Assembly (NCBI GenBank): GCA_017540175.1
Contig: JAFYBN010000031.1
Location: 7,481 to 71,480, forward strand
From: Clostridia bacterium
GTDB taxonomy: Bacteria; Bacillota; Clostridia; Oscillospirales; CAG-272
Direction of reading: 5' to 3'
Length of the DNA: 64,000 bases
The position numbers and the translations under genes were made by a program. The notes under the pieces were generated by a model. That model did no database searches. It was not told the DNA's origin and saw nothing but the letters and a program-made list of their open reading frames with translations. This document shows positions 56,291-64,000 of the stretch, one piece after another. The stretch's first letter is position 1. The number at the start of each line of letters is the position of its first letter.

Positions 56291-56728
56291 TCAGCGTTTC
56301 TTCAGCAGGAGGATCTCCGGGTCGCTTCCGTCCGCGCCGAAGCGGCTGATGAGGATGAAGGTCGTGTCGGCGATCACGCCGATCATCTCCCCGGTGTCCG
56401 CGCAGGCGATCTGCGTGCCGAGATAGATGTCTTTGTCGTCGAGCAGCTTTACCCTTTCCCCACCCGGCAGGGGGTATTCGAGATTGACCGCCGCGCCGAC
56501 CAGCTCGACGAGCCCCTGTGCCGCGGGAAGAGAAAGCATGCCGAGCAGAACGTTGATCTCCTCGGTCAGCCGTTCTTTGAAGCTCCGGTACGCTTCAATG
56601 CCGCCGGTCTTGATGTACTCCGCGGCGACACAGCGTCCGCCGAACGGTGAGCCGCAGGTTGCCCGGCATCCGCGGCAGGTTTTTCGAAAGGAGCAGACCG
56701 TGCAGTCCGCTCCGCAATAGGTCGTCAT
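56291..56728 (-). CDS. DUF3795-like Cys-rich protein
   Basis: YCGADCTVC...C.GC..TCG.PFGG.C; GGAGG RBS. Confidence 0.75.
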   Translation of the reverse strand: MTTYCGADCTVCSFRKTCRGCRATCGSPFGGRCVAAEYIKTGGIEAYRSFKERLTEEINVLLGMLSLPAAQGLVELVGAAVNLEYPLPGGERVKLLDDKDIYLGTQIACADTGEMIGVIADTTFILISRFGADGSDPEILLLKKR

Positions 56729-56772
56729 GCCCGTCCTCCCGATTTCGCGCCCGTGGGCGCTTTATTCGTCCC

Positions 56773-56801
56773 ATTATACAGGATTATTCCCGCTCAGTCA
56801 A
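56773..56801 (-). promoter_or_regulatory. sigmaA promoter
   Basis: TTGACT, 17 bp, TATAAT on the minus strand. Confidence 0.8.
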
Positions 56802-56868
56802 GTGCAGGCGGCAAAGAAAGCGCAAAATATTATGGGGCGTTTTCCCGCCGCGAATTTCCCCCTTCCCA

Positions 56869-56897
56869 TTGCAATCCGCGCCGCAATCCTGTATAAT
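56869..56897 (+). promoter_or_regulatory. sigmaA promoter
   Basis: TTGCAA, 17 bp, TATAAT. Confidence 0.8.
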
Positions 56898-56979
56898 GGT
56901 TTATGATAACAAACGGCGCGCTCTCGGAGCCGCCCCGAACCCGTGCGCGGGTTCTTCGTGTGGAAAACGGAGAGAAGCT

Positions 56980-58848
56980 ATGATAAAAACAAGGGTGAAA
57001 ATCTATTTAACGCGTCTTCTGATCTGCGCGGTCTGCGCGGGAGCGCTCGGCTCCTGCTCCGCGCCCGCACCGAATCACAGCCAACCCGAAACCGCAGCCG
57101 CGGAGACGAAAAAAACGCCCGCAGCCGAAAAGGAGGAAATCGCCATGACCGAAACGGAAGCGATCATCGCTGCGGAGACCGAACCGACCTCCGCCGAAGC
57201 CGAACAGACAGCCGCAGAAGCATCCGAACCGACCGCCGCCGCAGAGCCGGAAAACACGGAACAGGAGGAATGCCGGATGACCCTCTTCGGCATCCCGCTC
57301 GGGCAGTGGACGCTCGTCTACTCCGAGAACTACGCCTATAAGGACATACTGGACATCCGCGCGTTCGCGAAGCTGCTCTCACAGCTCAGCGGACAGACCG
57401 TTTCCGCCGCGGACAAGCAGCCACAGACGGGGCACTGCATCCTGCTCGGACGCTCGTCCCCGCTCACGCCGCGCACCGACGATCTCAGCTATATTGTCCG
57501 CTGGGACGGGGAAAACCTGCACATCGGCGGAAACAGCTTTTGGGCGGACTGCCGCGCTCTCTACAACGAGCTGATCTACGGCGCGCTCGGCGCGGACTAC
57601 GCCTTAAATCCCCCGGAGAACCCTCCCGAGGACGTGACCCTCGCCGACCGGGACGTCTCCGACCCGTCCCACAGCCGCGCGTATTCGATCTCGGCGTGGT
57701 GCACCTCCGGCGACGCCTTTGACACGGAGGAGCTCGTCCGGCAGGCCGCGGAGGCGGGCTTCTCGAAGGTCAACATCAGCGGCGCGTCGGACGTGAAGCT
57801 CTGCCGCGACCTCATGAAATGGTGCGCGATCTACGATCTCGAGATCCTCTGGTCGGGTGCGGGCGTGTCCGCCTCGAACATGACGCGCCAATCGTGGGAG
57901 GAGCAGAAGTACATCCTGACCGCGCCCCACGTCTGGGGCATCTATCTCTGCGACGAGCCGAGTTCCTCGCAGTTCGAATCGCTTGCCGAGTCGGTCGAGA
58001 AATTCGGAGAGTACACCGACAAGGTGGCGTTCATCAATCTCTTCCCGACCTACGCGTCCGCGAAGCAGCTCGGGAATCCGACCTATCAGGCGCATGTGGA
58101 CGAGTTTTTCAGGACCGTGCCCGTCACATGGGCGTCGGTCGACCACTACCCGCTGAATTCGAGCGGCCTCAACGGCGACTACATGACGAACCTCGAGATC
58201 GTTGCGGCGGCGTGCCAAAAGTACCGCGTCCCGTTCAGCGTCTACCTGCAGAGCGTGTCCTTTGTCTCCTGGAAGCGGACGCCGAGCGAGCGCGATCTCG
58301 AGTGGCAGCTCTGGTGCATCCGCTCGTTCGGCGCGGCGGAGGCGATCTATTTCACCTATATGACGCCGTACAGCACCGCGGAGGACTTCAAGGACGCCCT
58401 GATCGACCACAACCGCGAGAGAACGGACCGCTGGTACGCCGCGCAGCTCGTCAACGGCGAGTTCGCCGCTCTGGACGGCGCGTTCGCCCGCTATCCCTCA
58501 TGGCTCGGCGCGTTTACGCTGGGCGCAGACCAGAAGAGCAGCAGCCGGTTGGATTTCATGCGGTTCGACGGCCAATATGATTTCAGCGCCGTGATCCCGG
58601 AAATCTCGAGCGACAACCTCCTGCTGTTCGGCTGCTTCACGAACACGGAGGGGAAATACGCCTTCACCGTCGTGAACTGCGAGGAGCTGCTCAAGGCAAG
58701 CCGCACCGCGTCCGCGCGGATCAAAACGAACGCTCCCGTCACGCTCTGGCAGAACGGGGCGTCCTCCCTCCTCGAGCCGGACGCCGACGGGTACGTCTCC
58801 GTGGAGCTTGCCTGCGGCGAGGGAGTCTTCTGCGAGATCGGGAACTGA
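56980..58848 (+). CDS. lipoprotein with putative glycoside-hydrolase TIM barrel
   Basis: Lipobox LGSC, E/T/A linker, GH20b-like N-domain, GIYLCDEP, FINLFP, SVDHYP, C-terminal beta sandwich. Confidence 0.7.
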   Translation: MIKTRVKIYLTRLLICAVCAGALGSCSAPAPNHSQPETAAAETKKTPAAEKEEIAMTETEAIIAAETEPTSAEAEQTAAEASEPTAAAEPENTEQEECRMTLFGIPLGQWTLVYSENYAYKDILDIRAFAKLLSQLSGQTVSAADKQPQTGHCILLGRSSPLTPRTDDLSYIVRWDGENLHIGGNSFWADCRALYNELIYGALGADYALNPPENPPEDVTLADRDVSDPSHSRAYSISAWCTSGDAFDTEELVRQAAEAGFSKVNISGASDVKLCRDLMKWCAIYDLEILWSGAGVSASNMTRQSWEEQKYILTAPHVWGIYLCDEPSSSQFESLAESVEKFGEYTDKVAFINLFPTYASAKQLGNPTYQAHVDEFFRTVPVTWASVDHYPLNSSGLNGDYMTNLEIVAAACQKYRVPFSVYLQSVSFVSWKRTPSERDLEWQLWCIRSFGAAEAIYFTYMTPYSTAEDFKDALIDHNRERTDRWYAAQLVNGEFAALDGAFARYPSWLGAFTLGADQKSSSRLDFMRFDGQYDFSAVIPEISSDNLLLFGCFTNTEGKYAFTVVNCEELLKASRTASARIKTNAPVTLWQNGASSLLEPDADGYVSVELACGEGVFCEIGN

Positions 58849-58953
58849 AATCGTAAGCCGTCAGAAATCTCTCCGAGCGACGGAACAGCCCCCCGCGCGG
58901 CGGACGTCAGCGGGCGCGGGGGAAGCGACCAAAAAATGAAAAGGGAACGAATC

Positions 58954-59235
58954 ATGGACAAAGCTTCGCTGATGCAATTTTTGAAAAGAATACTGGGAAA
59001 CGGGTCGGCGGAAAAATCCGCCGCGTCCCTCGGTCAGCTTCGCGACATCCTGAAGGCCCAGAACGCCGATGCGGACATGATCCGGCTCGTCGAGGCGACC
59101 CTTGCGAATATATCGGAAGCGAAACATGAGGTCATACAGACGACGTTTTCGGAAGCGACTCTGAGAACCGCCCTCGAAAGAGCGCAGAGACGGAAACAGC
59201 GGGAAGCGGAAATGGCAGACAGGGGACGGTGCTGA
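58954..59235 (+). CDS. small helical hypothetical protein ending ...DRGRC
   Basis: AAGGGA RBS; TGATG coupling to the next gene; alternative start 58936. Confidence 0.75.
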   Translation: MDKASLMQFLKRILGNGSAEKSAASLGQLRDILKAQNADADMIRLVEATLANISEAKHEVIQTTFSEATLRTALERAQRRKQREAEMADRGRC

Positions 59236-60233
59236 TGAGCGAGTATTTCGGAAGCACCTACGCGGCGGCGGACGGGATTATCCTTTCCTACACCGGATCG
59301 GACGTCTCCCTCTCCGTCCCGCAGACGCTCGCCGACATGCCGATCGTCCGGATCGGGGACGGCGCTTTCATGGAGTCGGCAAAGCTCCGCAGGGTGTTTC
59401 TCCCGGACGGGATCCGCGAGATCGGATCTCAGGCATTCCGATCCTGCCGCGAACTCAGGGAGGTCAGCATTTCCGGCTCGGACACCTCCTTCGGGGAACG
59501 CGCTTTTACGGCGTGCCCGAAGCTCGGCGCGCTGAGTTTTTCCGATTTTCCCGTGAGCGCGAGCATCTACGCGACGCTGAAAACCGCCTCGCAGCGCGTC
59601 AACGGTACGCAGTATCTCGCGCGAACTTTTCCGGACGACAAACGGCTGAGAGCCGCGCTTTCCTCGACCGGGATCCCGCCTGCGACGCTCGTCCCGGACG
59701 GGCTGCGCCGCTTGTTCGTTCATTGGGATCCGGACGAGCCGTCGAACGCTTCGGAGCCGGAGTCGGCGAACGACCTCTTTGCCTTCGGCGACGCCGATCA
59801 CGCAAGCGCAGCGGATGAACTTGCCGCCCTCGTGCGCGGCGGCGCGTCAATCGGCTCGGACCGGGAAACGGAACGAAAAAACGACGTTTTCGAGAGGACG
59901 GAAAAACGACCATTGCCAGTGAAGACGGCAGTCTTCTCATTCGACGACGCAAAGACCCGGAGGGAGAGCGGCGGGTATCGTCTTTCCGTCCGGATCAGCA
60001 TCGGCTGTCATTACTGGCTGAGCGCCGTCCCGATCCGGTTCCATGAAAAAACGTATTACATATGCCGCCGGCACGACCTTGCCGCAGAGCCGGATTTTCT
60101 GTACACCCGGCGCGAATTCGCCGTGTTTTCGGGAGATACTTCCCTTTCCCGGCCGCTCGGCGACGCGCTCGTCACGAACACGAATCTTGTGAGGGAAATC
60201 TATGCAAAATACCGACTCATGTCGATCCTGTAA
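59235..60233 (+). CDS. BspA-type leucine-rich-repeat protein with unknown C-terminal domain
   Basis: YTGSD..L.VP, IGDGAF...LRRVFLPDGIREIGSQAFRSC..L, FGERAFTAC..L; no signal peptide. Confidence 0.8.
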   Translation: MSEYFGSTYAAADGIILSYTGSDVSLSVPQTLADMPIVRIGDGAFMESAKLRRVFLPDGIREIGSQAFRSCRELREVSISGSDTSFGERAFTACPKLGALSFSDFPVSASIYATLKTASQRVNGTQYLARTFPDDKRLRAALSSTGIPPATLVPDGLRRLFVHWDPDEPSNASEPESANDLFAFGDADHASAADELAALVRGGASIGSDRETERKNDVFERTEKRPLPVKTAVFSFDDAKTRRESGGYRLSVRISIGCHYWLSAVPIRFHEKTYYICRRHDLAAEPDFLYTRREFAVFSGDTSLSRPLGDALVTNTNLVREIYAKYRLMSIL

Positions 60234-61158
60234 AAACAACGGAAAAACACGCGTCGTCGAGATCCTCGGCAAGCCCGTTCGGGTCAAAAGCTACGTCTGC
60301 TCGCCGGACGGCGTTCACTATAAGGACAAATCCGAACCGATCCGCCTGCAGCTCTCCGTATGCCCGACCTCCTTTTGCCCGGCGAACTGCCCGTTCTGCA
60401 TCGCTGGGGGAACGCAATCGCGGCGCAGGCTGGATCTTGCCGCGCTCGAGCGAACGATGAGACTGCTGAAGGCTGAGGACCGGGTCCGCGGGATCAAGCT
60501 CACGGGCGGCGAGCCCATGCTCGACGTCGTATTCTTCGACGAGATCGTGCACCTTCTTTACGAAGTGTTCGGCTATGAGATCGAGATCTCGGTCAGCACG
60601 AACGGGCTCGGGCTGAGAGATCTGCATAAGGTCCGGGATCTGAAGTACATCGAATCGATCCATCTCAGCCGCCACCATTACGACGACGGGGTGAACAAAC
60701 AGCTCTTCGGCGGCGCGGACGTGCCGTCCCGGGACGAGCTGAAAGAGATCGTCGGCTCCGTATCGTTCAAGGACATTTTCGTGCTCAACTGCCTTCTGCT
60801 CCGGGATTATATCTGCTCGCCCGAGGAGGCGCACCGCTTTCTCGATTTCGCGATCGACGTCGGCATCCCGAAGGTGGGATTTGTCACCTGCTCGCCGATC
60901 AACGCGTTCGCGAAGGCACAGCACATTTCGGACAAAACGGTCATCCGGGACGACGACCCCGCCCTCCTCTTCACGCGCGGCTTTTATGATTACGACGTCT
61001 GCCGCTGCCGGGACGGCGTGTATGTCTCGGCGGAGGGAGAACTCGTCGAGTTTTACACCCGGGACACCTGTACCGGCGGGTGCGGGTATTCGCGGGGACT
61101 GGTTTACGACGCGGACGATCATCTGCGGGACGGATTCGGCGGGGAGATCATTCTCTGA
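60202..61158 (+). CDS. radical SAM protein of unknown function
   Basis: CPANCPFC (Cx3Cx2C), LTGGEP, STNG, HLSRHHYDD, C-terminal CRC..C...C..RGLVYDAD..L..GF. Confidence 0.92.
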   Translation: MQNTDSCRSCKNNGKTRVVEILGKPVRVKSYVCSPDGVHYKDKSEPIRLQLSVCPTSFCPANCPFCIAGGTQSRRRLDLAALERTMRLLKAEDRVRGIKLTGGEPMLDVVFFDEIVHLLYEVFGYEIEISVSTNGLGLRDLHKVRDLKYIESIHLSRHHYDDGVNKQLFGGADVPSRDELKEIVGSVSFKDIFVLNCLLLRDYICSPEEAHRFLDFAIDVGIPKVGFVTCSPINAFAKAQHISDKTVIRDDDPALLFTRGFYDYDVCRCRDGVYVSAEGELVEFYTRDTCTGGCGYSRGLVYDADDHLRDGFGGEIIL

Positions 61159-61186
61159 ACATCATGCGAAGGAAGGAGGCGGGAGC

Positions 61187-62437
61187 ATGGACGTCGAGAA
61201 AGAAATCACGAAATTCAAAATGGATCTTCTCCGGAAGATGCCGTTTTACGGCGACATCGTCATGAACCTGCCCTTCGTGCCGAACAAAAAAATCCCGACC
61301 GCCCGAACAAACGGCGGGATGATCGAATACAATCCGGATTTCCTCGGTTCCATGAGCGCGGGAAAGCGGAATTTCATCCTGATGCACGAGGTCTTCCACG
61401 TCCTGCTGTTCCACTGCAGCCGCAAGAACGAAAGACACCCGCGGATCTGGAACGCCGCCGCGGACATGATCGTCAACGCGATGCTTCTTGAGCGCCTGTC
61501 CTTCATGAACGAAAACAGGATCGCGTTCGAAAAGCCGGACAGCGGCATTTTCACGTCCGTCGGCGCGTGGGACACCACCGAAAACCTTTACAACAAGCTG
61601 CTTCTCGACAACAGCACCCCGCAGTCGGGTCCGGACACGGTCCGGCGCTGCGTGAAAACATGGCGCGGCACGCTGAACGAAGAGATCTGGCCTGCGCCGT
61701 CCGACCTCATTCTCGTCGCCGCGCCGGGGGAGGAGAGTGATGACGGCAGTTCCTCTCCGCCGGCGCTGAGCCCGGAAGCGCTCCTCGAGCTCATCCGGGA
61801 ATCGGCGTCGAGAAACCGGTCCGACACGGCAAGCTGCATGGTGCCGCGGGAAATCTACCGGCTGACGGAGAGAAAAACGGTCAACTGGAAGACCCTGCTC
61901 AGGGAATTCTGCGAAGCGGAGCGGAGCGACGAGTCCTCTTATACGACTCCGGAGCGGAAATACATCCACATGGACCTGATCCTGCCGGGATACGGCATGA
62001 CCGAGGAGAGGCTTGAGGAAATCTGGGCGTTCGTGGATTCCTCCGGGTCGATCTCCAAAACCCAGATGGAAGAATTCTTGTCCGAGCTGTATCGCCTCGT
62101 GCGGGAATTCAAATGCAGGCTCAATATCTGTTACTGGGACACGAGCGTGACGGACGTTTACAAAAACCTCACGAAGGAGGCGGACGTGTTCGACAGCATT
62201 CCGCTCCACTCGGGCGGAACGGACATCAACTGCGTCTACCGCTGGATCCGTGAAAACAGGGCGGACCCGGACGTGATGCTGATTCTGACCGACGGATATT
62301 TCGGCAGACTGAACCCGCAGGTCTTTAAACCCTCTCTCGCAAAGAAAACCATCCTCGTTCTGAACGGGGAGATCGCCATAGACGACGATATGAAGCGGAT
62401 CGGAAAAATCACACGACTGGAGAAACAGAAATCATGA
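61187..62437 (+). CDS. DUF2201-like metallopeptidase (HExxH) plus vWA domain protein
   Basis: PFYG, PTARTNG..YNP.F, MHEVFH, WNAAAD..VN, VNWKTLL, FVDSSGS (MIDAS), GGTD, LTDGY; AGGAGG RBS. Confidence 0.9.
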   Translation: MDVEKEITKFKMDLLRKMPFYGDIVMNLPFVPNKKIPTARTNGGMIEYNPDFLGSMSAGKRNFILMHEVFHVLLFHCSRKNERHPRIWNAAADMIVNAMLLERLSFMNENRIAFEKPDSGIFTSVGAWDTTENLYNKLLLDNSTPQSGPDTVRRCVKTWRGTLNEEIWPAPSDLILVAAPGEESDDGSSSPPALSPEALLELIRESASRNRSDTASCMVPREIYRLTERKTVNWKTLLREFCEAERSDESSYTTPERKYIHMDLILPGYGMTEERLEEIWAFVDSSGSISKTQMEEFLSELYRLVREFKCRLNICYWDTSVTDVYKNLTKEADVFDSIPLHSGGTDINCVYRWIRENRADPDVMLILTDGYFGRLNPQVFKPSLAKKTILVLNGEIAIDDDMKRIGKITRLEKQKS

Positions 62438-63630
62438 CAATCAGGGAATTCGGTGAATGCGTCGAATACAATATCGAGCACAACATCAAGCACGCCATTC
62501 TCGGGCTGGGCGCGCCGGGCGTGGGCAAATCCCAGATCATCCGCCAGATCGGAAAAAAATACGGCTACAAGGTGATCGACATCCGGCTGGCGCAGATGTC
62601 CGAGGTCGAGATCGGCGGTCTAATCTATCCGAACGAGAGCCGCACGAAGACCGTCTGGCTCGCGCCGGAGATTTTGCCGGACGAGGAGCGGGACGGTAAA
62701 AACACGATCCTGCTGCTCGACGAGCTGACCTCCTGCACCAAGCGCGTGCAGGTCGCGGCCTACCAGCTCATTCTGGATCGCCGGATCGGACAGTACCGGC
62801 TTCCGGAAGGGACCTTCGTCGTGGCGCTCGGAAACCGCGAGGACGACGACGGCGTGTACATTCGGCTGGCGGGCCCGCTTGCCGACCGCTTCGAGATCCA
62901 CTACATCGAGCCGAATTTCGAGGACTGGAAAAACGATTTCGCGATCCCGAACAACGTGCATCCCCTCGTGGTGAATTACCTGAGCTTCAAGCCCGCGGCG
63001 CTCCACAACCAAAAGACGTCGGAGGGCAGCATGGTCTTCTCCACGCCGCGCTCCTGGGTTCGCGTAAGCGACATTCTGCATTTCGATTCGGACGTGACAA
63101 AGCCCGTGATCCGGAACAAAATCATCGGCAACATCGGCGAAAGAGAAGGCAATCAGTTCGTCGAATACTGCAAAAAGCACGCCCGTTTCGTCACGGCGGA
63201 CGATTTTCTCTCGAAAAAACTGCCCGCGCCCTCCGCACCGGAGGAGCTGTCGATCCTTGTTTCCTCCCTCGTGGACAAGGCGGGATTTCTGCGGAACGCG
63301 GGGGACGAGCCGAACGGGGAGCAGAAGGGTCTTCTCGAGGAAATCATCCTGGGACTCTTTCGGATGCCGAAGGCGGAATATACGGTCATCGGCCTCCGGG
63401 GACTGCTCGCGCTCAACCGCGAGGCGGTGAAGAAGGTCTTCTTTATGATGGACGACGAAAACATTCAGCGGTTCATCGAAGACAACGGGGGCGTCCTCGG
63501 GTTGGAGGAAAACATTCAGCGACTCATCCGGGACAGCGGCGGCGGCTCCGGTTCGGGGGAAAGAAAAGAAAGCTGTGCAAAGACGAGCTCCAGAAAAACG
63601 GACTGGAAAAAATGGCTGAAGGAGAAGTAA
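62434..63630 (+). CDS. MoxR/dynein-related AAA+ ATPase
   Basis: Walker A GAPGVGKS, IDIRL, Walker B LLLDEL, YQLILDRRIG.Y.LP, ALGNR, LADRF, TPRSW; ATGA overlap. Confidence 0.93.
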   Translation: MTIREFGECVEYNIEHNIKHAILGLGAPGVGKSQIIRQIGKKYGYKVIDIRLAQMSEVEIGGLIYPNESRTKTVWLAPEILPDEERDGKNTILLLDELTSCTKRVQVAAYQLILDRRIGQYRLPEGTFVVALGNREDDDGVYIRLAGPLADRFEIHYIEPNFEDWKNDFAIPNNVHPLVVNYLSFKPAALHNQKTSEGSMVFSTPRSWVRVSDILHFDSDVTKPVIRNKIIGNIGEREGNQFVEYCKKHARFVTADDFLSKKLPAPSAPEELSILVSSLVDKAGFLRNAGDEPNGEQKGLLEEIILGLFRMPKAEYTVIGLRGLLALNREAVKKVFFMMDDENIQRFIEDNGGVLGLEENIQRLIRDSGGGSGSGERKESCAKTSSRKTDWKKWLKEK

Positions 63631-63633
63631 ACG

Positions 63634-64000
63634 ATGTCCGCATTCAAAAAGGTGATGAATCGCGAGATCACCGGCTGGCGGGTATGGGACGCGGCATGGC
63701 TTTTCACGGCGCTCTACGCGGTCTGCGTCTGCTCCGTCATCGCCGGTGAGAACGACTGGATCAGCCTGACCGCCGCGCTGACCGGCGCCGCGTGCGTCGT
63801 TCTGACCGGCAAGGGCGTGCGCTTCTCCTTCCTCATCGGACTTGTGAACTCGCTCCTTTACGCATATATCGCGTGGAAGGCGAGGTATTACGGGGAGGTC
63901 ATGCTGAACCTCATCTATTACGTTCCGATGGGCGCGGTCGGCTGGTTCGCGTGGAAAAAACATATGAACGATGAGACCGGCGAGGTCGTGAAGGAAAGGC
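63634..64000 (+). CDS. pnuC: PnuC-family (nicotinamide riboside/vitamin) transporter, 3' end outside window
   Basis: Not in the ORF track because it has no stop in the window. My translation MSAFKKVMNREITGW..LTGAACVVLTGKG..GLVNSLLYAYIAW..YYGEVMLNLIYYVPM..GWFAWKK matches PnuC. AAGGAG RBS; starts 3 bp after the ATPase stop. Confidence 0.85.
   Translation, partial: MSAFKKVMNREITGWRVWDAAWLFTALYAVCVCSVIAGENDWISLTAALTGAACVVLTGKGVRFSFLIGLVNSLLYAYIAWKARYYGEVMLNLIYYVPMGAVGWFAWKKHMNDETGEVVKER

Follow-up and report, generated by a model that had tools for sequence, protein, structure and literature searches.

Described relatives of the locus

Pyrroloquinoline quinone (PQQ; PqqA/PqqE/PqqD/PqqF) and mycofactocin (MftA/MftC/MftB/MftE) are cofactors derived from peptides through the action of a radical S-adenosylmethionine (SAM) enzyme, together with a peptidase. 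The locus described here lies at the end of a 64,000-nucleotide stretch, the window, of contig JAFYBN010000031.1 from the Clostridia bacterium GCA_017540175.1, and runs on the plus strand from position 58954 across the window end. It comprises seven genes, encoding a small Cys-tailed protein, a leucine-rich repeat (LRR) protein, a radical SAM enzyme, a protein with HExxH and von Willebrand factor A (vWA)-like domains, a MoxR-like AAA+ ATPase, the transporter PnuC, and a NadR-like protein. Like the PQQ and mycofactocin systems, the locus sets a small peptide with a conserved C-terminal target residue beside a dedicated radical SAM enzyme and a peptidase, and the product would be expected to serve metabolism, not antibiosis. 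The favoured explanation, given about an even chance, is that the radical SAM enzyme modifies the C terminus of the Cys-tailed peptide, that the LRR protein as an adaptor and the MoxR/vWA-metallopeptidase pair handle this peptide in Clostridia, and that the system is tied to nicotinamide riboside (NR) uptake and the synthesis of nicotinamide adenine dinucleotide (NAD).

The comparison with the two cofactor pathways also reveals differences. PqqE and the mycofactocin maturase are weak matches to the radical SAM enzyme, in which neither a SPASM nor a PqqD/RRE domain is detected. The peptide is long (90 to 170 residues), its predicted target is the terminal Cys instead of the Glu/Tyr or Val-Tyr of the known pathways, and the LRR protein, the MoxR/vWA accessories, and the linkage to NAD genes set the locus apart.

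The last two genes resemble a second described system, NARP3, in which a phage PnuC-like transporter and a NadR-like ribosylnicotinamide kinase (RNK)/nicotinamide mononucleotide adenylyltransferase (NMNAT) import NR and rebuild NAD+ against Sir2-HerA (Sci Adv 2026, main text of PMC13464706); activity is described there only for the phage Bas30_86/87 pair. Both systems show adjacent pnuC and nadR genes, a NadR lacking the helix-turn-helix (HTH) domain, intact NMNAT and kinase motifs, presence in phages, and horizontal mobility. In contrast to NARP3, the pair here closes an operon of seven genes. NAD-synthesis gene clusters are also reported for gut jumbo phages (main text of PMC11662467). The word "radical" appears in neither main text, and "cysteine" is likewise absent from that of the NARP3 study. 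A literature search found no paper that connects PnuC, NadR, or NrtR with either a peptide or a radical SAM enzyme and none using the term DUF2201. Within the searchable literature, supplements excepted, neither the five upstream genes nor the way in which they are coupled to NAD salvage has thus been described. The first-pass annotation of the window, made from the sequence alone, had known of no described pathway with this combination, which stands for these five genes but not for PnuC-NadR, a pair of the NARP3 type.

MoxR/vWA pairs are described in two further sources as remodelling their targets and inserting metals (PMC13036017 and PMC9976466). The ATPase and its partner share with NorQ/NorD, CbbQ/CbbO, RavA/ViaA, and CobS/CobT the translational coupling of an AAA+ protein with intact Walker motifs to a vWA protein with a metal-ion-dependent adhesion site (MIDAS). 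Unlike in these pairs, the vWA partner here carries an N-terminal HExxH DUF2201_N domain, and both proteins belong to phage-rich families without a solved sequence relative. Among solved structures, viperin and MoaA provide the best profile and fold matches of the radical SAM enzyme, but it scores far under the cut-offs of both families. We know of no counterpart in these families to its SRHHYDD block or to the obligatory Cys-tailed peptide as a neighbour.

The radical SAM enzyme and its partner proteins

The radical SAM gene (60202..61158, plus strand; PF04055, PF13353) encodes 318 residues, and its PF04055 score of 54.4 bits against a cut-off of 29.5 places the product in the radical SAM superfamily. 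The three cysteines of the CxxxCxxC motif (C59, C63, and C66) are invariant in both family alignments. Further marks of the family are a GGE motif, an invariant S-R-H-H-Y-D-D..N..F block, and a C-terminal CxC; the conserved cysteines C33, C197, C267, and C269 could bind a cluster or zinc. The AlphaFold2 (AF2) model (pLDDT 85.3) shows a partial TIM-barrel fold like those of MoaA and viperin. The nearest solved relatives by fold and profile, all of them distant, are viperin-like enzymes, viperin, MoaA, YydG/EpeE, and SuiB, with profile E values of 7e-15 for viperin-like enzymes and 7e-12 for MoaA and a TMq of 0.58-0.63 over 286-296 columns for the viperin-like/MoaA fold. All curated NCBIfam models score far short of their cut-offs; viperin_w_prok reaches 24.4 bits against 180 and moaA 40.1 against 284, which places the protein outside both families. 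The PADLOC pVip profile matches at an E value of 5.5e-8 and covers residues 56-168 only. A profile search of 1.84 billion representative proteins returned 244 clusters (50% identity) at E<=1e-30, and metagenomic protein sets hold 495 relatives at E<=1e-3, of which the 120 listed are 55-97% identical and ∼318 residues long. Judged from these profiles and alignments, the enzyme is a member of an unnamed family. Among the 244 clusters, one is a natural fusion, P0132 (737 residues), which carries an SRHHYDD-family domain at 436-736 behind a second radical SAM domain, echoing loci in which a HemN-like radical SAM gene adjoins the pair.

The small gene (58954..59235, plus strand) encodes a protein of 93 residues, or 99 from an alternative ATG at 58936, which ends in Arg-Gly-Arg-Cys directly before the stop codon; the homologues begin at the Met of 58954. 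No Pfam, NCBIfam, PHROG, or PADLOC family covers it. A Cys-terminated open reading frame (ORF) of 55-200 residues on the same strand and within 2.5 kb (<=2.5 kb) of the radical SAM gene is present in 77 of the 81 family loci with at least 3 kb of sequence on each side (termed well flanked), while the background in the first set of loci is 184 Cys-ending ORFs among 4520 six-frame ORFs of 55-200 residues. This pairing holds down to 25-30% identity of the radical SAM enzyme. The four exceptions are the distant phage loci L055, L056, and L059 and the locus L143, where the small gene is split and still ends in GRC.

Among 34 aligned small proteins of the Clostridia type, the terminal Cys is the sole invariant column, and the preceding Arg is conserved in at least 90%. 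Distant small proteins share a similar N-terminal helix (M-F-x-x-x-x-L-x-E-F-V...), followed by tails rich in Ser, Gly, Cys, Tyr, and Arg, some with repeated units resembling S-Y-x-x-G-C, that end in Cys. Two copies of the small gene are present in three loci (L011, L014, and L017). As read from the alignments, the anatomy of the protein is that of a leader-plus-core precursor or scaffold peptide, and it is proposed as the predicted substrate or scaffold peptide of the radical SAM enzyme. A predicted complex of the two proteins with a 4Fe-4S cluster and SAM gave scores of 0.48, 0.18, and 0.11 against a mark of 0.32, which weighs neither way. Two other roles for the small protein were considered and dropped: that of a glycyl-radical "spare part" like GrcA, as a Gly near the C terminus is not universal, and that of a source for bulk de novo synthesis of the pyridine ring, for which the cost per molecule would be too high. 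In two Bacilli-type loci (L107:8926-9789 and L111:8929-9798), a gene for an ADP-ribosylglycohydrolase of the DraG/ARH type lies between the radical SAM gene and pncC, and on account of this gene the Ser/Arg/Cys/Tyr-rich tail may be linked to ADP-ribosylation.

The LRR gene (59235..60233, plus strand; PF13306 [LRR_5], E 1.1e-11) encodes a cytoplasmic protein with an N-terminal BspA-type LRR of ∼110 residues and a C-terminal two-thirds of no recognised family. In the AF2 model (pLDDT 90.2), the LRR part matches 4oju (Z 13.7) and 6mlx (Z 13.0). Foldseek and VIA-wide searches with the model gave no clear PDB match for the C-terminal domain, which they barely probed, so that no claim of a new fold is made, and the ESM Atlas returned only low-score leads (0.78) for this part. 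The LRR protein is present in all 43 well-flanked Clostridia-type loci and is missing from the Bacilli-type and phage variants, save for two unrelated-looking LRR matches.

The next gene (61187..62437, plus strand; PF13203, PF09967) encodes a DUF2201_N domain with an HExxH motif followed by a vWA-like DUF2201 domain. Scores of 89.1 bits against 23.2 for PF13203 and 45 against 26.4 for PF09967 place it in both families, and it also matches phrog_1314 (E 3.9e-70). In 20 of 20 homologues, no change is seen at H, E, or H of HExxH or at D, S, G, or S of the DxSGS MIDAS; DUF2201_N is a putative metallopeptidase. No PDB sequence matches the protein at E<=0.1. The ATPase gene (62434..63630, plus strand; PF07728 [AAA_5], PF00004) scores 25.9 bits against a cut-off of 22 for AAA_5, with PF00004 also weak but above its cut-off, and matches phrog_1297 (E 1.5e-73); there is no PDB sequence match at E<=0.01. 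Walker A (GAPGVGKS) and the DE of Walker B are invariant in 20 of 20 homologues. A tblastn search of phage records gave 836 matches, all below 60% identity, several of them annotated as MoxR ATPase, and the label MoxR is taken from these GenBank annotations of phage homologues. The Walker A and B motifs, the MIDAS, and the coupled genes identify the two proteins as an AAA+ ATPase of the MoxR type with a vWA partner.

Peptidases of four families occur across the variants of the locus (DUF2201_N HExxH, PrsW, M50B, and Zn_peptidase_2), and some variants add HemN-like, RlmN-like, or MiaB-like radical SAM genes. This variety of peptidases together with extra radical SAM genes is typical of peptide-tailoring clusters.

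Gene neighbourhoods, the NAD link, and acquisition

The first-pass annotation had described six co-oriented, tightly coupled genes from 58954 to the window end, and the ORF listing and the sequence bear out all of its coordinates, overlaps, and gaps. The stop codon of the small gene overlaps the ATG of the LRR gene as TGATG, the LRR and radical SAM genes overlap by 32 bp, and a 28-bp gap containing AGGAGG separates the radical SAM gene from the vWA/HExxH gene, which in turn overlaps the ATPase gene as ATGA. A gap of 3 bp leads to pnuC (63634..64000, plus strand), which continues past the window to the window-equivalent position 64338. A NadR gene downstream had been anticipated as a possibility, and a nadR-like gene follows directly outside the window, at window-equivalent positions 64328-65392, overlapping pnuC by 11 bp; a GH31 glycosidase gene comes next. 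Family searches put names on five of the six genes in the window, with the small protein left without a match.

PnuC (234 residues; TIGR01528, 138.7 bits against a cut-off of 42.45) belongs to its transporter family and matches phrog_1880 (E 2.2e-55). The NadR-like protein (354 residues) shows predicted NMNAT and RNK domains and a strong match to phrog_3462; TIGR01526 (E 1.2e-53, 182 bits against 341) and NF005988 (E 1.4e-51, 176 against 201) both stay below their cut-offs. The protein aligns from profile position 64 on and thus has no N-terminal HTH. Of 23 homologues, 22-23 retain the GxFxPxHxGH motif and the P-loop.

A scan of genome contigs with the single radical SAM protein found one weak relative, and an alignment query was needed to find the loci. 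Alignment-guided scans gave 30 and then 77 loci on genome contigs, 15 on viral contigs, and 207 on metagenome contigs, of which 80 were kept. The seven proteins were mapped onto the loci by tblastn and by hidden Markov models (HMMs) built from those loci, and loci with radical SAM proteins identical over their final 120 residues were counted once. The census comprises 155 non-duplicate loci with a radical SAM HMM E value below 1e-30, including the 81 well-flanked loci.

The seven-gene order is repeated in Lachnospiraceae, Acutalibacteraceae, Ruminococcaceae, and other Clostridia metagenome-assembled genomes (MAGs), with identities of 50-65% for the radical SAM enzyme, 63-75% for NadR, and 66-80% for MoxR. 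Conservation of gene order was among the checks named in the first-pass annotation, and its repetition in dozens of other genomes puts the arrangement far outside what chance would give. Clostridia-type loci (radical SAM E<1e-100) show the order small-LRR-radical SAM-vWA-MoxR, usually followed and sometimes preceded by PnuC-NadR; in relatives from Butyrivibrio and Eubacterium it is changed to radical SAM-small-LRR-vWA-MoxR. Within the 43 well-flanked loci of this type, vWA is found in 39, MoxR in 38, PnuC and NadR in 28 each, and NrtR in 7, and vWA-MoxR is absent altogether from 8 of the first 30 Clostridia loci. Bacilli-type MAGs, whose labels include Bacilli, "Tenericutes," Coprovivens, Christensenella, and one Muribaculaceae, have the order NadE/NadD-PnuC-NadR-small-radical SAM-PncC with a radical SAM enzyme of 29-34% identity; PncC is followed by NAD kinase, NrtR, a phosphoribosyl pyrophosphate (PRPP)-synthetase-like gene, or an ADP-ribosylglycohydrolase. 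Large viral contigs (150-480 kb) carry TonB-dependent receptor-PnuC-NadR-small-radical SAM, and the same architecture is found in GenBank "uncultured phage" records of 634-735 kb with a G+C content of ∼0.3.

In the phage loci L048:2196-4211 and L052:6182-8164 and their relatives, the gene directly upstream of PnuC-NadR-small-radical SAM encodes a TonB-dependent outer-membrane receptor with plug and barrel; together with PnuC, such a phage may hold a complete two-membrane uptake route. A contig labelled Methanobrevibacter (L126:5758-9556) shows NMNAT-PnuC-radical SAM with two Cys-tailed small genes. Because a bacterial-type RecA gene (PF00154, E 2e-101) lies directly upstream, this contig is probably bacterial and mis-binned, and no archaeal member is claimed.

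A gene for PnuC, NadR, NadD, PncC, or NrtR is found near the radical SAM gene in 57 of the 81 well-flanked loci, and this association extends over 25-65% identity of the enzyme, over varied gene orders, and over bacteria and phages. Loci without one include Butyrivibrio/Eubacterium-type clusters and variants with a second radical SAM gene and Zn peptidases. Four of five genomes with a cluster lacking pnuC-nadR encode a close PnuC-NadR pair (55-72% identity) on another contig. The fifth, the cultured Eubacterium ruminantium FB3002, has two radical SAM genes of the family (L101/L140 and L141), each adjoining a short NMNAT-only gene and pnuC.

NrtR is a Nudix-related regulator of NAD genes. Its gene ends the operon in several Clostridia loci, where it follows NadR in the 7 well-flanked ones, and in many Bacilli-type loci. 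The element TTGACATCATAATATCAAAATGATAATATCA, a pair resembling -35 and -10 boxes that overlaps a repeat, lies 40-155 nt upstream of the first small gene in 9 of 13 NrtR-encoding Clostridia-type loci, among them L008, L009, L011, L024, L027, L148, L150, and L153; L017 has a partial copy of TTGACATCATAATATCAAAATGATAATATCA without TTGACATCAT. The element may be an operator, and as the loci are close kin, its conservation may be mere ancestry. It is absent from the locus of the window itself.

The distribution of the genes in related genomes bears on their origin. None of 36 same-genus genomes (69-97% complete) yielded the radical SAM gene, and 24 genomes from other families of the order gave two weak generic radical SAM matches and no more. 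NadR is likewise absent from the 36 genomes and shows elsewhere only weak matches (E>=1e-4) to short adenylyltransferases. In the genome at hand, PnuC and NadR are found once each, both in this locus; NAPRTase is encoded, and NadA was not found at 93.5% completeness. Since the radical SAM gene and nadR are both missing from the same-genus genomes, the seven genes for the small protein, LRR, radical SAM, vWA-HExxH, MoxR, PnuC, and NadR form, on this comparative evidence, one horizontally acquired operon, in which pnuC-nadR is read as having arrived with the other five genes and not as resident housekeeping DNA beside an insertion. The genes flanking the cluster differ from locus to locus and are unrelated. 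No empty site could be defined through the GH31 neighbour in 12 same-genus genomes with GH31 orthologues, which have no upstream lipoprotein gene and no nadR or pnuC within 1.5 kb. In a Lachnospiraceae MAG, the operon is split by an insert of ∼4.5 kb (L013:12508-16971) that resembles a mobile element; it contains three tyrosine-recombinase genes and a DUF6262 gene and separates vWA from MoxR.

A scan upstream of the small gene gave no convincing promoter; the one terminator-like hairpin found in a scan lies just 3' of nadR (L002 6887-6904). An Rfam scan of eight loci tied no riboswitch or other RNA to the cluster, its only matches being a Clostridiales-1 small RNA (L088) and a tRNA (L118). In two poly(A) RNA-library runs of one study, contigs are 100% identical to parts of the locus, covering the LRR region, the radical SAM-vWA and vWA-MoxR junctions, and the MoxR and PnuC regions; as DNA can occur in such libraries, these contigs are a weak hint of transcription. 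At least half of the sampled words of 58900-64000 are contained in 12 public runs (animal-gut and bovine-gut metagenomes) and at least part of this segment in 20 runs from 14 studies. Owing to its occurrence across these gut runs, the organism or the island appears to be widespread in herbivore guts. Directly upstream of the cluster lie a Cys-rich ORF of 145 residues without a Pfam match (56291-56728, minus strand) and a lipoprotein-like gene with a weak GH42 match (56647-58848, plus strand; E 4e-5); neither recurs beside the cluster in other genomes.

Competing explanations and significance

In the favoured explanation, the ancient core consists of two genes, one for the Cys-tailed protein of ∼90-170 residues, the other for its dedicated SRHHYDD-family radical SAM enzyme. 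The enzyme would bind the helical N-terminal leader of the small protein and perform radical chemistry on the C-terminal Cys or the adjoining tail, and the modified product would work in pyridine-nucleotide (NAD) homeostasis, a role proposed because NAD salvage genes adjoin the pair in different phyla and in phages. PnuC is predicted to import NR and NadR to convert it to nicotinamide mononucleotide (NMN) and then to NAD. Clostridia would have recruited the LRR protein, probably as an adaptor holding the peptide, as well as MoxR and its vWA/HExxH partner, probably for ATP-driven remodelling and cleavage that releases or matures the modified tail. The first-pass annotation had offered as one of two models that the radical SAM enzyme modifies the Cys-terminated protein and the HExxH domain processes it; the comparative data favour this model through the Cys-ended ORF in nearly all well-flanked loci, the invariant Cys, and the recurring peptidases, while the chemistry on the peptide itself is still inferred. 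Several observations weigh against the favoured explanation. The three distant phage loci have no Cys-terminated ORF, and two bacterial small proteins lack the terminal Cys (...GRCR in L074 and ...SDFL in L103). Pfam detects no SPASM or RRE/PqqD domain in the enzyme at E<=0.01, and by profile and fold the nucleotide-acting viperin and MoaA rank nearer to it than peptide maturases do. No NAD gene is present in the flanks of 24 of the 81 well-flanked loci, and since the loci stem from related gut and rumen organisms in overlapping collections, the counts do not represent independent events. The cost of a peptide of ∼100 residues per product would also be too high for bulk NAD synthesis, which leaves the nature of the NAD link unexplained.

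Viperin-like enzymes and MoaA abstract a ribose hydrogen from a nucleoside triphosphate, and as the nearest solved relatives of the enzyme act on nucleotides, a nucleotide substrate is kept as the main rival, itself unlikely but deserving serious weight. Here, the enzyme would act on a pyridine nucleotide or nucleoside (NR, NMN, nicotinic acid mononucleotide, or NAD) supplied by PnuC/NadR, with the small protein as a stoichiometric partner whose terminal Cys could either supply sulfur or hydrogen (as an atom) or join the nucleotide radical covalently; the MoxR/vWA-peptidase would recycle or release the adduct. The agreement of profile and fold on viperin-like enzymes and MoaA points in this direction, as do the placement of the pair in NAD operons, with NadR or NadD on one side of it and PncC on the other, and the retention of just a short NMNAT gene and PnuC beside the radical SAM gene in some variants; the invariant charged R-H-H-Y-D-D block and the CxC would suit an auxiliary cluster or a ligand that is polar or a nucleotide. 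Against a nucleotide substrate speak the NCBIfam viperin and MoaA scores far under their cut-offs and the leader-like N terminus with repeated core-like tail units, which suit a substrate better than a cofactor, and the loci without a nearby NAD gene count against it as well. A more far-reaching and rather improbable proposal is that the pair builds a sulfur-containing pyridine-nucleotide derivative, either a peptide-S-NMN/NAD conjugate or a released cofactor or regulator with sulfur from a sacrificial terminal Cys, a use of Cys that could be likened to LarE of the nickel-pincer nucleotide pathway and to Thi4.

The peptide may also belong to an ordinary cluster for a peptide of the ribosomally made and post-translationally modified kind (RiPP), antimicrobial or signalling, with PnuC-NadR as a hitch-hiked neighbour of the five upstream genes. 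A precursor-like peptide, a radical SAM enzyme, and a peptidase, the duplicated precursors, the extra radical SAM methyltransferase-like tailoring genes of some variants, and the Butyrivibrio-type clusters without adjacent NAD genes agree with this; hitch-hiking, however, fails to explain an NAD link at 25-34% identity with varied gene orders in three host groups including phages. Bacilli-type operons place the pair between NadR or NadD and PncC/NrtR, the cluster has no conserved exporter or immunity gene, and genomes with an unlinked cluster still encode the same type of PnuC-NadR, so that this explanation is held to be quite unlikely. The other model of the first-pass annotation, an anti-phage defence or stress module in which the LRR protein senses a trigger and MoxR/vWA activates the radical SAM enzyme to attack a nucleotide or NAD-related metabolite, is not supported and is held to be very unlikely. 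The MoxR and vWA/DUF2201 proteins do come from families abundant in phages and conflict systems, and weak PADLOC hits exist for pVip (E 5.5e-8, radical SAM core) and for PDC-S01/DolB (ATPase), but these are confined to generic radical SAM and P-loop cores; a check against PADLOC-DB v2 left four of the seven proteins without a hit and found no named system. No defence genes recur in the flanks, and most of the wider family lacks LRR and MoxR/vWA genes. Phages and bacteria are known to fight over NAD (main text of PMC13464706), but the core pair lies inside NAD operons with NadD, NadE, PncC, NAD kinase, and NrtR, the last of them their putative regulator, and phages carry it beside an NAD-restoring module. 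PnuC, which the same annotation had considered as a possible handler of the radical SAM product, proves instead to belong, with NadR, to a pair that is an integral, co-transferred component of the island and matches the NARP3 module. That the locus consists of two unrelated abutting units, an inserted element of five genes beside a housekeeping pnuC-nadR resident in the genome, is barely credible. PnuC-NadR is a self-sufficient, characterised module (main text of PMC13464706), and the eight Clostridia loci without vWA-MoxR and the many without pnuC-nadR show that modules can separate. This explanation is contradicted by NadR and PnuC being as absent as the radical SAM gene from the 36 same-genus genomes and by an adjacency repeated in 28 of the 43 well-flanked Clostridia-type loci; the 3-bp gap between MoxR and PnuC and the 11-bp overlap of PnuC and NadR also argue against it.

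To our knowledge, bacterial NAD metabolism is regarded as fully mapped. An uncharacterised radical SAM enzyme and its peptide nevertheless sit in the middle of the NAD operon of many Bacilli-type gut genomes and beside the NR-salvage pair in rumen Clostridia and in megaphages of >600 kb. Cultured carriers (Butyrivibrio sp. VCB2006, B. proteoclasticus P6B7, and E. ruminantium FB3002) make the question directly testable. A peptide-derived cofactor, should the pair make one, would take its place beside PQQ and mycofactocin. Should pyridine nucleotides be what the pair acts on or through, NAD homeostasis in anaerobes would gain a step or regulator so far missing, and the NAD-centred arms race of phages and bacteria a new participant. 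Should the sulfur-containing nucleotide derivative prove true, the chelatase-like MoxR/vWA pair would mature the product in Clostridia by metal insertion or proteolytic release, and the system would constitute a missing NrtR-regulated branch of NAD metabolism in gut anaerobes, copied by megaphages beside their NAD-restoring genes.

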